A stretch of DNA of 64,000 nt, taken from the NCBI GenBank assembly GCA_041659065.1, contig JBAZYY010000002.1, positions 24,091-88,090 of the forward strand. The letters run 5' to 3'. The DNA comes from Parcubacteria group bacterium (GTDB lineage Bacteria > Patescibacteriota > Minisyncoccia > Moranbacterales > UBA11712). Below are positions 5,743 to 31,717 of the stretch, piece after piece; positions within the stretch are counted from its first letter, which is position 1; each line of letters starts with the position of its first letter. A program made the position numbers and the translations under genes. The notes under the pieces are model-generated. The model saw only the letters and a list, made by a program, of their open reading frames with translations. It ran no database searches and was not told where the DNA came from.

Positions 5743-6408
5743 TTATTCGAAAACTATTTCTTCGTCTTGTTTTTTCATTTGAAAATCGGTAATATTTTCT
5801 GCAGCATATTCTTCTAATTCTTTGTAATTTCTAAAGTCTCCTCTGAATTCTTCATCTCTTACTAAATCATCTCTGCTTTTTCCAATGTGATGCAGAAAAC
5901 TGCACCAAGGATAGCTTTCCGCTGCACAAACTTTATGCACTTCGCTGTTGCAGCTCACGTACACTGAAAATCTCGAAAGGGACCCCTCGGATTTTATCTG
6001 CGAAGATTTGAACTTGCCCTGAAATAAGGCGCCATTTCGCTTATTCCTCTCATTGAAATATTTCGTATAACTTGTGCCTAGTTTTTGCAAAAATTTTTCA
6101 ATTCCTTTCTCAACTCTTTGTTTCAAGATCATATGGTAGTGATTTGACATGAGGCAATAACTGACAATATCCACGAGATATTCTCTTTTCCTAAAGTTCG
6201 ACTTTAGGAAGTCATCGAAATTGGCATTCTTGACACACTTCTTATAGTCGCGCCATTTTATCATTGCCCCATCCTCCTTATCATTCAAGAGATTCATCGA
6301 GATAAGAAACCGAGAAAAGTCTCCGTTATCCAAAAACACATCGCGCTTGTCCACGCCGCGATTATAAATATGATAATATTCATTTTCCACAAGAGGCGTT
6401 TTTCTCAT
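5743..6408 (-). CDS. IS200/IS605-family Y1 (HUH) transposase, REP-associated tyrosine transposase (RAYT)-like
   Basis: YHIYNRG N-terminus, HUH motif CLMSNHYHMIL, LFQGKF and C-terminal Tyr (VYVSCNS); flanked by REP palindromes. Confidence 0.8.
   Translation of the reverse strand: MRKTPLVENEYYHIYNRGVDKRDVFLDNGDFSRFLISMNLLNDKEDGAMIKWRDYKKCVKNANFDDFLKSNFRKREYLVDIVSYCLMSNHYHMILKQRVEKGIEKFLQKLGTSYTKYFNERNKRNGALFQGKFKSSQIKSEGSLSRFSVYVSCNSEVHKVCAAESYPWCSFLHHIGKSRDDLVRDEEFRGDFRNYKELEEYAAENITDFQMKKQDEEIVFE
6189..6209. repeat. REP-like palindrome inside the RAYT coding sequence
   Basis: TCCTAAAGTTCGACTTTAGGA; translates in frame as …FLKSNFRK… in the RAYT. Confidence 0.6.
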
Positions 6409-12998: not shown

Positions 12999-13388
12999 TT
13001 AGGGCATATTTTTGATTCTCTTTAGTCCGCTGATAATTTTTGCAGTCGTTACTGTTTGACTCGCAATTTTACCAAATTCATTTTTACTAATATAACCGAC
13101 ATCTTTAGAAATCAATAATTGATTTTGCAATTCAATAAGCGAGCTACTTGCTATGTAATAAAATTGACATTTTTCTTTGTTCCCATTGCGACCGAAGCCC
13201 TCGGCTATGTTTGAAGATACCGAAACAGATGCTCTCCTCATCTGATTCATTAATCCAAACATTTCTGTTTTCGGAAATTTATCCGTTACTTTATAAACCA
13301 TCAAAACCAACTTATGCGCTTCGCGCCATGCCCGCAGATCGGTAAATGACTTTATTTTATCGCCCTCCATACGAAATACGATATACAA
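12999..13388 (-). CDS. Four-helix-bundle protein (23S rRNA intervening-sequence protein family)
   Basis: FPKTEMFGLMNQMRRASVSVSSNIAEGFGR signature of the TIGR02436 family. Confidence 0.75.
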   Translation of the reverse strand: MYIVFRMEGDKIKSFTDLRAWREAHKLVLMVYKVTDKFPKTEMFGLMNQMRRASVSVSSNIAEGFGRNGNKEKCQFYYIASSSLIELQNQLLISKDVGYISKNEFGKIASQTVTTAKIISGLKRIKNMP

Positions 13389-27575: not shown

Positions 27576-28040
27576 TTATACCCCTTCGGCTAAAGCAATT
27601 GTTTCTCCCTGAGCCAGCTTTACAACCGCTTTTTTATAACCCTTTTTCCATCCGACCGTCTTTCCCTGAACTCTTTTTTTCCGGTGAATCTTGATCGTGT
27701 TCACCTCCAAAACGTTTACTCCGTAGTATCCTTCAATTGCCTGCTTTATCTGATGCTTATTGGCGTCAGGCTTCACTTTAAACACATACATATTTAGCTG
27801 GCCAAGTCCCGTGGACTTTTCGGATATAATCGGCTCCAGCAGAAATTTATAGCCCAAGTTTCCTTCTTTCTTGGCAACCTTTTTTTTAGGCGCGGCTTTC
27901 TTTTCCGGACTTTTAGCAGTTTCCTTGGGCGCGACTTCCTTCTTCATCTTTGGAGCTATCTCCTTCTTCTTGACCTCCTTGGATTCAGGCGCCGCCGGCT
28001 GCTGTTCCTTTTTTCCTAAAAATTTATTTATTATACTCAT
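27576..28040 (-). CDS. rplW: 50S ribosomal protein L23 with ~60-aa Lys/Pro-rich N-terminal extension
   Basis: L23 core from YKFLLEPIISEKS; N-terminal KKEIAPKMKKEVAPKETAKSPEKKAAPKKK. Confidence 0.85.
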   Translation of the reverse strand: MSIINKFLGKKEQQPAAPESKEVKKKEIAPKMKKEVAPKETAKSPEKKAAPKKKVAKKEGNLGYKFLLEPIISEKSTGLGQLNMYVFKVKPDANKHQIKQAIEGYYGVNVLEVNTIKIHRKKRVQGKTVGWKKGYKKAVVKLAQGETIALAEGV

Positions 28041-31166: not shown

Positions 31167-31234
31167 ATTTTTTTATCGCGAATTGACATAAATCCAATTC
31201 GAATCCATGCCGATTCGTTATTATTAACTATTTA

Positions 31235-31444
31235 TTAAGTTTTAGCATTAAAATGTCTGCCTGCCCGAAATGCTTTATCATTTAAGCAAATAACACATTT
31301 ACCATAATGCATAAAGCCTATATTTGCAATGCTTTTTGCTGCATCGCATTTAAAGCAGGCGGGTGAAATTATTCTAAACAATTTTTTAAAACTTGGCAAG
31401 TCCCTCCTACACATACTCCACATCTTCCAGCTTCTCAATTTCAT
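31235..31444 (-). CDS. Possible small zinc-ribbon protein (69 aa)
   Basis: CFKC…(17 aa)…CVIC; overlaps the 3' end of the upstream small ORF; coding status uncertain in an AT-rich region. Confidence 0.3.
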   Translation of the reverse strand: MKLRSWKMWSMCRRDLPSFKKLFRIISPACFKCDAAKSIANIGFMHYGKCVICLNDKAFRAGRHFNAKT

Positions 31445-31676
31445 CCGTCAGCAATTCTTTGGAATTATCAGTCTGATTTTCACGCCAAGCGGCAATATCA
31501 GAATTTATTCTATCAACTAATTCTTCCTCTGTCAAAGATTTGACATTTGGATAATTTTCAAGGCTTTTCTTGTATTCTTCCCAGCCCATAACAATGTAGC
31601 GAGGTTTATCCTTTTCAATAAAAATATATTTGCCACCCGCTTTTTCCATTAGCTCTTTCAGCTCCTGGGAGATCAT
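31407..31676 (-). CDS. Small protein with Phd/YefM-antitoxin-like N-terminal pattern
   Basis: ISQELKELMEKAGGKYIFIEKDKPRYIVMGWEEYKKSLEN mirrors the helix-strand-strand-EEY pattern of YefM; acidic C-terminus; sits between fusA and tuf. Confidence 0.4.
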   Translation of the reverse strand: MISQELKELMEKAGGKYIFIEKDKPRYIVMGWEEYKKSLENYPNVKSLTEEELVDRINSDIAAWRENQTDNSKELLTDEIEKLEDVEYV

Positions 31677-31717
31677 AAGATTAAAATTCGATTTATAATT
31701 TAGGCCCGAATCGCTAA

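Follow-up and report, generated by a model that had tools for sequence, protein, structure and literature searches.

Few gene orders in bacteria are as conserved as that of the str and S10 operons, where it is unusual for an extra gene to separate fusA from tuf. What, then, occupies this junction in a 64,000-nt stretch of contig JBAZYY010000002.1 from a Parcubacteria group bacterium (the window hereafter)? A preliminary description of this DNA had proposed a two-gene insertion, in which an 89-aa open reading frame (ORF) with a Phd/YefM-like N terminus and an overlapping 69-aa ORF with two CxxC motifs formed a toxin-antitoxin (TA) pair or addiction module, with a regulator riding on the str operon as the other option. 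Our analysis points to a different composition: one real extra gene, the 89-aa ORF (ORF89, which we call X), accompanied by regulatory DNA and RNA of tuf and by a small hairpin insertion, with X belonging to a Phd/YefM-like family that has no toxin. We assign this reading a probability of roughly 0.75. The X gene is more interesting than the preliminary description supposed. Both ORFs are indeed present in the ORF list on the minus strand and overlap, with the CxxC...CxxC pattern in the 69-aa ORF (ORF69), and the features that concern us first are as follows.

33805-31718, minus strand: fusA, encoding EF-G (695 aa), from the ORF list; EF-G genes 60-100% identical to it were located by tblastn in related loci.
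31676-31407, minus strand: ORF89 (X), 89 aa, supported by homologues, synteny and selection at the protein level.
31444-31235, minus strand: ORF69, 69 aa, with CxxC...CxxC, a spurious ORF without homologue or family match and with its frame broken in a relative.
31166-29973, minus strand: tuf, encoding EF-Tu (397 aa), the downstream neighbor of X, from the ORF list.

ORF89 is a real gene, and the insertion between fusA and tuf is a single-gene rather than a two-gene one. When X was compared with its 83%-identical relative in locus L010 (related loci are cited by such numbers), the proportion of nonsynonymous differences (pN) was 0.08 and that of synonymous differences (pS) was 0.70, giving a ratio of nonsynonymous to synonymous change (dN/dS) of ~0.04; other pairs gave a dN/dS of 0.08-0.23 or had saturated synonymous sites. 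A word-indexed search returned 4 close homologues (58-100% identity), each located between fusA and tuf on its own contig. In the HMMER profile scan, which covered 1.84 billion cluster representatives, 700 proteins passed E<=1e-3 and 61 of these passed E<=1e-10; these representatives stem from clustering at 50% and are 60-285 aa long. With a 74-member profile, the family comprised 1161 clusters at 90% identity. The source names of these clusters are Patescibacteria, Parcubacteria or Buchananbacteria, and the records are mostly called "hypothetical," while a few carry the names "Phd/YefM family antitoxin" or "prevent-host-death family protein." Our literature search found no description of the X family or of a promoter within X. 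The domain is of a known kind; what is new is a toxin-less family in a fixed position, with a helix and a tail motif of its own and a predicted promoter in the codons of a conserved peptide.

The position of X was compared across related loci, for which we used the best 80 of 292 confirmed relatives from a motif-based scan of metagenome contigs with a 13-sequence alignment; EF-G, EF-Tu, S7, S10, and S12 were located in these loci by tblastn. At the fusA-tuf junctions of relatives, tuf is the gene that comes next after X on the same strand in 69/69 loci with enough downstream DNA, and the spacer between them measures 35-348 nt, with a median of 161 nt, in 67 of the 69. L027 and L028 have acquired genes for phosphoenolpyruvate (PEP)-utilizing enzymes (1.6-2.2 kb) in the spacer; these inserts, at L027:4273-5887 and L028:1095-3301, mark the only loci in which X and tuf are separated. 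No conserved second ORF was found between X and tuf in the 69 loci. On the upstream side, the end of fusA precedes X by a median of 68 nt in 63 loci, and unrelated genes stand upstream of X in L065, L088, and several others, with tuf still downstream. Given that tuf is kept downstream even where fusA is not upstream, the invariant linkage is that of X to tuf. EF-G in the X loci ranges from 100% down to 60% identity to that of the window, which indicates that the X-tuf arrangement is old. The order rpsL-rpsG-fusA-X-tuf-rpsJ was also present in 3 more genome bins, namely, Buchananbacteria GCA_013359225, a Patescibacteria bin, and a marine Parcubacteria bin. A narrow-pattern scan of genome contigs, which gives no measure of the number of species carrying X, matched 2 loci.

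The position of X is therefore fixed and inherited vertically across deep lineages, the opposite of what is seen for patchy, mobile addiction modules: in place of a patchy, horizontally mobile distribution, we found the same slot in every one of these loci and in several named candidate phyla. Across a large branch of the candidate phyla radiation, the fusA-tuf slot is filled by one family. In the window itself, 41 nt separate the fusA stop codon from the start of ORF89, and no terminator is predicted in this gap, so that the cotranscription with fusA that had been proposed is plausible. On the minus strand, the genes run rpsL-rpsG-fusA-ORF89-ORF69-tuf-rpsJ, with rpsJ, rplC, rplD, rplW, and rplB lying 3' of tuf. 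The two genes upstream of fusA complete the layout.

34844-34428, minus strand: rpsL, from the ORF list.
34280-33813, minus strand: rpsG, from the ORF list.

Why should X and tuf have stayed together for so long? A candidate explanation lies within the X gene, where the promoter scan found its best match in 6 kb.

31507-31535, minus strand: sigma-70-type promoter consensus TTGACA-17-TAGAAT with an upstream TG (promoter scan, 11/12 matches).

The -35 box of this site is spelled by the codons of L48-T49 (TTG ACA) and the -10 box by those of D55-R56-I57 (GAT AGA ATA), and the predicted transcription start lies near 31500, directed toward tuf. Across the family, the DNA for the peptide LTEEELxD(K/R)I reads TTGACA-17 nt-TA(A/G)(A/G)AT. 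We compared its codons with those of LT pairs in the EF-G, EF-Tu, S7, S12, and S10 genes of the same loci. TTGACA encodes 42/63 distinct LT/LS motifs of the family versus 12/264 (4.5%) of the control LT pairs, with 5.5% expected from codon usage, and TA[AG][AG]AT follows 17 nt after TTGACA in all 42 family genes that have it. The bias holds at the individual positions. L48 is TTG in 49/67 family genes versus 5/65 at the equally conserved L53; T49 is ACA in 46/61 against a background of 19%; D55 is GAT in 47/49, compared to a background of 62% and to 48/65 at D60; and I57 is ATA in 36/67, compared to a background of 11% and to 5/67 at I61. Shared ancestry does not explain this codon bias, given that neighboring synonymous sites are saturated. 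The bias relative to the controls argues that the synonymous sites are selected to keep a consensus promoter pointing at tuf. The codons of a conserved peptide would then double as the predicted -35 and -10 boxes for the most abundant protein of the cell.

Secondary tufA promoters within the fusA coding region are known from the E. coli str operon (literature of the 1980s-1990s). The site in X resembles them in that a tuf promoter lies within the preceding coding sequence; it differs in lying within a separate small gene, at the most conserved peptide of that gene, and in being predicted from consensus and codon bias. Control signals that overlap neighboring genes can freeze gene order, as discussed for operon concatenation (PMC6735719). 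The predicted overlap of the embedded promoter with the X gene can alone explain why X and tuf stay together.

The spacer between X and tuf holds two further candidate regulatory features.

31371-31399, minus strand: second promoter-like site, TTGCCA-17-TAGAAT (scan, 10/12), directly 3' of the ORF89 stop.
31179-31217, minus strand: conserved structured tuf leader with two alternative helices on one 5' arm (covariation in 17 sequences).

The start predicted for the spacer promoter lies near 31364. Its TTGCCA and TAnAAT elements are kept in the window's clade (L001, L003, L007, L012, L014-L017, L021, L022, and L026), and the spacers of other clades contain TGnTAnAAT motifs. In the leader, two alternative partners are available to the 5' arm CGAAUCGGCAU: the proximal GGAUUCG, with which it forms a hairpin at 31217-31200, and the distal AUGUCAAUUCG, whose end lies 12 nt upstream of the tuf AUG. 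The proximal hairpin, CGAAUC-loop-GAUUCG, had 100% of its cells paired in the 17 sequences, including a UA<->CG swap, and its G.U wobbles function on the sense RNA only. The distal helix was 92% paired versus 15-50% in slid controls, with compensatory changes in 5/10 pairs. In other clades of Patescibacteria, tuf is preceded at ~15-90 nt by a structured leader of another kind (L035, L038-L040, L043, L050, L052-L055, L064, L071-L073, and others). Its P1 helix shows covariation at 5/6 pairs, the UGG that follows the 5' strand is invariant, and an AAAAC box and a GC-rich inner hairpin are also present; we consider this leader a candidate new cis-regulatory RNA. Neither leader type matched Rfam at the gathering score; the one Rfam match in the window was a tRNA located elsewhere, the region itself had no match at E<=1, and 20 related loci gave none. 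Like the autogenous leader RNAs of ribosomal protein and translation factor operons, the tuf leader has a covarying helix directly upstream of the tuf start codon; unlike them, it matches no Rfam family, and its form differs between the window's clade and other clades.

Three other assignments in the spacer were considered and rejected. That X might use the leader hairpin as an operator at the DNA level was dropped because 4 lineages keep the pairing of this hairpin through G.U wobbles, which work in sense RNA only, and CTTGCCAAG was dropped as an operator palindrome because its last base is not conserved. The scan had flagged 31217-31200 as terminator-like; this sequence lacks a U-run and is the conserved leader stem.

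What kind of protein is X? The N-terminal domain of Phd/YefM proteins is the dimerizing, DNA-binding part of these antitoxins. Residues 1-45 of X appear to form a divergent, truncated domain of this type, and the sequence support for the assignment through relatives is good. PF02604 matched 58/74 family members at E<=0.1 (best, 7e-9). P0031 and P0231 scored 31.6 and 30.7 bits, above the PF02604 gathering cutoff of 29.8 bits, and P0004, a member from the window's clade that is 58% identical to the window's X, scored 23.8 bits against a cutoff of 20.8 for TIGR01552 (phd_fam). The Phd/YefM-like N terminus that had been claimed for the 89-aa ORF is thus borne out by its relatives; the window protein itself matches no model. 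The family matches span profile positions 11-57 of 74, starting at 11-15, so that the first beta-strand is absent. In an hhalign comparison of the X family with an E. coli YefM sequence entered by hand, IVLDxxGxPxYVIMSxxDYEkLI was aligned with a probability of 51% (E=1.6e-4). The AlphaFold2 (AF2) monomer model (124 sequences; predicted local distance difference test [pLDDT] score of 60) places a helix at residues 4-12, strands at 16-21 and 24-30, and helices at 32-40 and 50-71, and it likewise predicts no first strand. A profile search of the PDB with 4 X sequences returned noise only.

The best-conserved segment of the family, LTEEELLDKINRDIAxW(K/R)xxQ, follows this N-terminal domain and corresponds in the window to a conserved helix at residues 48-68 (LTEEELVDRINSDIAAWRENQ). 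N58 is invariant in the 74-member alignment; the 124-member alignment adds L48, I57, and W64 as invariant positions. The linker that follows the helix is acidic (median net charge, -9) and highly variable in length, from 5 to 180 aa. Within 14 residues of the C terminus, 162/187 distinct members have an acid-aromatic motif, with the consensus [DE]xYYFEP[VI][ED] in the family and LED[IVM]EY[VI] in the window's clade; in the window, the acidic tail ends in the conserved EKLEDVEYV. X would thus have a dimerization domain connected to a short terminal motif by a flexible acidic tether. Such a plan is shared by antitoxins, ribosomal stalk proteins, and SSB, and the tails of stalk proteins and SSB recruit partners.

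X shares with the Phd/YefM family (PF02604, TIGR01552; E. coli YefM and phage P1 Phd) an N-terminal helix-strand-strand-helix core with the signature G-x-P-x-Y-V-L-M-S-x-x-E-Y-x-x-L, and its C-terminal half is, as in these antitoxins, acidic and probably disordered, with a short terminal motif of the binding type. Unlike them, X has no adjacent toxin and occupies a fixed, vertically inherited slot in a ribosomal protein operon; it also lacks the first beta-strand, and the family helix LTEEELLDKINRDIAxW and the YYFEP-type motif lie outside the Pfam model. The family resembles a domesticated Phd/YefM-type antitoxin without a toxin, and we infer an antitoxin ancestor that lost its toxin partner. 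A Phd/YefM-like gene is not always the mark of a TA system, a point that matters for annotation.

Several results weigh against this reading of X as a toxin-less Phd/YefM-like gene set among the regulatory DNA and RNA of tuf. The window protein had no match at E<=10 among Pfam or NCBIfam models, and a profile search of the PDB with 74 X sequences reached YefM at E=0.19, which is too weak alone. The absence of the first beta-strand could impair dimerization or DNA binding, and X is acidic, with a net charge of -9. No conserved operator palindrome was seen by eye in the spacers. The activity of the internal promoter is a prediction from consensus and codon bias, and one subclade (L018, L027-L029, L032, and L033) has no internal TTGACA. 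The related loci are not phylogenetically independent and were selected by a motif scan.

How might such a gene work? X would lie at the 3' end of the str transcription unit, with its gene body doubling as regulatory DNA for tuf and with the embedded promoter locking it to tuf in cis. The protein may work in the manner of an antitoxin but with a housekeeping target, a dimer binding the tuf promoters in and just after its own gene. The acidic tail motif would bind a partner, most plausibly from the elongation machinery, e.g., EF-Tu, which would modulate DNA binding, and the transcription of tuf and the S10 operon would thereby be linked to the output of the str operon. That X is a regulator riding on the str operon, the other option of the preliminary description, is possible; that it controls transcription of tuf and the S10 operon by the mechanism just proposed is a tentative suggestion to which we would give somewhat less than even odds. 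More broadly, a dimer of X would bind DNA at the tuf promoters, a partner through its tail motif, or both; the probability not taken up by this suggestion and the alternatives below goes to functions of other kinds. Should X turn out to influence tuf expression or EF-Tu itself, the translation apparatus would be controlled in a new way in organisms that cannot yet be grown alone.

A more specific form of this regulation appears doubtful to us, namely, that X is a Patescibacteria-specific feedback regulator built on the TA plan, in which EF-Tu or some other component of elongation takes over the part of the toxin. A Phd/YefM-like dimer would sit on the tuf promoters and would recruit free EF-Tu as a coregulator through its acid-aromatic C-terminal motif. 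If true, tuf and the S10 operon would be under autogenous control in organisms without the classical leader systems, and one stretch of DNA would encode both a key helix and the promoter that the protein controls.

X could also be an accessory of the elongation machinery that contacts EF-Tu, EF-G, or the ribosome through protein-protein interactions only and binds no DNA. Its predicted architecture, a dimeric N-terminal domain with an acidic tether and a C-terminal motif, resembles that of the stalk proteins bL12 and archaeal P1 or the SSB tail, and the length range and charge of the linker, the frequency of the terminal motif, the missing first Phd/YefM strand, and the overall acidity of the protein fit such a role, as does a place always beside tuf and usually after fusA. 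However, neither profile nor Foldseek searches found similarity to known GTPase-binding proteins (the X model had no significant Foldseek match at all), the embedded promoter can account for the synteny in cis with no need for a link at the protein level, and the sole recognizable domain comes from a family of DNA-binding regulators. We regard this alternative as rather unlikely.

Doc-type kinases of the Phd-Doc system inactivate EF-Tu, which raises the question of whether X might serve as an antitoxin or immunity protein against such a toxin, or another, encoded in trans elsewhere in the genome, by a competitor, or by a phage. The relationship of X to Phd/YefM, a disordered C-terminal region that resembles the toxin-binding part of antitoxins, and the linkage to tuf would be in keeping with this, but X has a fixed, vertical position at EF-G identities down to 60%, unlike TA genes, and 0/10 uncharacterized ORFs scanned in the 64-kb window matched a toxin family, a search that covered the window and short contigs. 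An immunity role of this kind seems to us very unlikely.

It is likewise improbable, to a high degree, that the X frame persists chiefly because it carries the tuf promoter and leader, with a protein of little importance. Synonymous selection for TTGACA-17-TAAAAT within the best-conserved peptide would be expected of such a carrier; the purifying selection on X, however, extends over its full length at the pN and pS values given above, the N-terminal domain and the C-terminal motif are far from the promoter and yet are conserved in hundreds of members, and the subclade without TTGACA retains the protein.

The remaining part of the region is ORF69, which had been proposed as the second gene of the insertion. 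It overlaps ORF89 by 38 nt, and its translation contains C30xxC33 and C50xxC53, i.e., two CxxC knuckles. We found no homologue of ORF69 among 5.8 billion proteins and no match to a Pfam or NCBIfam family. In L010, whose EF-G is 95% identical to that of the window, the corresponding frame stops after 20 codons, and ~104 nt from the middle of ORF69 are missing from L001/L010, L003/L011, L007, L008, and further loci of the clade. ORF69 starts with 13 codons that read the DNA for the acidic C terminus of X (the EKLEDVEYV codons) in the +1 frame, and the remainder spans the spacer promoter and an inserted hairpin, whose TGC-rich DNA gives rise to the CxxC motifs. ORFs of this size are common noise, given that 8 kb of this DNA contain 60 ORFs of at least 40 aa and only about a dozen genes among them. 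On this evidence, ORF69 is a by-product of the hairpin insertion and not a gene, and the two-gene insertion stands only in its ORF89 half, the conserved and selected one. Small CxxC ORFs in palindromic DNA can thus be annotation artifacts.

31258-31363, minus strand: lineage-specific insertion of ~104-106 nt, 5'-CCCGCCTGCTTTAAATGC ... GCATTTCGGGCAGGCA-3', missing in the closest relatives and predicted to fold.

The insertion provides most of ORF69, both CxxC motifs included. It folds as a long closed hairpin (z = -3.5) at the 5' end of the tuf leader and starts within 1-2 bases of the start predicted for the spacer promoter. A sibling element with identical ends and a different interior, which also folds, is located in the rpsL-rpsG spacer of two relatives (L014:940-1043 and L013:1037-1140). 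Only the ends, CCCGCCTGCTTT...CGGGCAGGCA (the end pattern is also given as CCCGCCTGCTTT...CGGGCAGGC), are conserved and the interior is variable, which is not as a coding element would be. Both copies of the element lie within the str operon in sense orientation, and its closing stem uses U-G pairs and so pairs only as sense RNA, which suggests a role at the RNA level. There are no further copies within the 64-kb window, where the insertion is thus single copy; a weak match at 607-617 was judged unrelated. The insertion has no match in Rfam, and no target-site duplication was seen.

The element has terminal inverted repeats that form a hairpin and is polymorphic in presence and absence between relatives, as are repetitive extragenic palindromic (REP) sequences and miniature inverted-repeat transposable elements (MITE). 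With REP/bacterial interspersed mosaic element (BIME)/MITE-like elements it shares a length of ~104 nt, conserved inverted ends around a variable interior, a long hairpin, and varied intergenic sites in relatives; it differs from them in its one copy per 64 kb, in the lack of a visible target-site duplication, and in the sense orientation of both copies within the str operon. Two observations on mobile or palindromic DNA may be added here. A 221-aa ORF at 5743-6408 on the minus strand encodes an IS200-like Y1 transposase (PF01797, E=7.5e-8, above the cutoff); transposases of the Y1 type mobilize hairpin elements, and any relation of this one to the 104-nt insertion would be hypothetical. The tuf leaders of L012, L022, and L091, loci from different lineages, have a long GC-rich hairpin inserted (CCCCGCACCA...TGGTGCGGGG), which may be another recurrent palindromic element.

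Might ORF69 still be a young, lineage-specific upstream ORF (uORF) in the tuf leader, with its translation modulating tuf expression? Its ATG (31444) is the first after the predicted internal transcription start, and relatives have a shorter out-of-frame ORF from the same ATG. The shared start and the residues RSWK are, however, the +1 frame of the conserved EKLED codons of X, and neither the length nor the sequence of ORF69 is conserved. Three contigs do carry ORF69; they are 100% identical over the X gene and all share the insert, so that they give no test of selection. We consider such a uORF highly improbable.

The least credible reading, already refuted on sequence evidence, is a genuine type II TA pair cotranscribed with fusA and tuf, in which ORF89 would be the antitoxin and ORF69 a small zinc-binding toxin: the overlap of the two ORFs, the two CxxC motifs, and the Phd/YefM-like family of ORF89 had suggested it, and against it stand an ORF69 that has no homologue or family, lies on DNA missing in the closest relatives, and has its frame broken in L010, a sibling element that keeps the hairpin ends with no coding interior, and the absence of any conserved partner ORF from the 69 loci. 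At the fusA-tuf junctions of relatives, X is found before tuf throughout, and the ORF69 DNA is missing or its frame broken; by the preliminary description's own standard, its addiction module falls with the 69-aa frame, which is not conserved.

Some features of the window and its relatives lie apart from these questions. The window's EF-G shares 87% identity with its counterpart in a Candidatus Moraniibacteriota genome bin, which places the window in a Parcubacteria-type member of the candidate phyla radiation. Locus L008 (CAZIWW010000003.1) is labeled "uncultured Bdellovibrionales," yet its EF-G and EF-Tu are 83% and 87% identical, respectively, to those of the window, and its X gene belongs to the Moraniibacteriota-like clade; the bin is probably mis-binned or mislabeled. 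A masked run of N spans its rpsG-fusA junction. Elsewhere in the window, a 129-aa ORF at 12999-13388 on the minus strand is a "23S rRNA-intervening sequence protein" (PF05635, E=2e-36) that sits among ordinary genes, and Rfam shows no rRNA in the window. Finally, the protein encoded by rplW (L23), at 27576-28040 on the minus strand, is extended N-terminally of its conserved domain by ~60 residues, among which Lys, Pro, Glu, and Ala are abundant.

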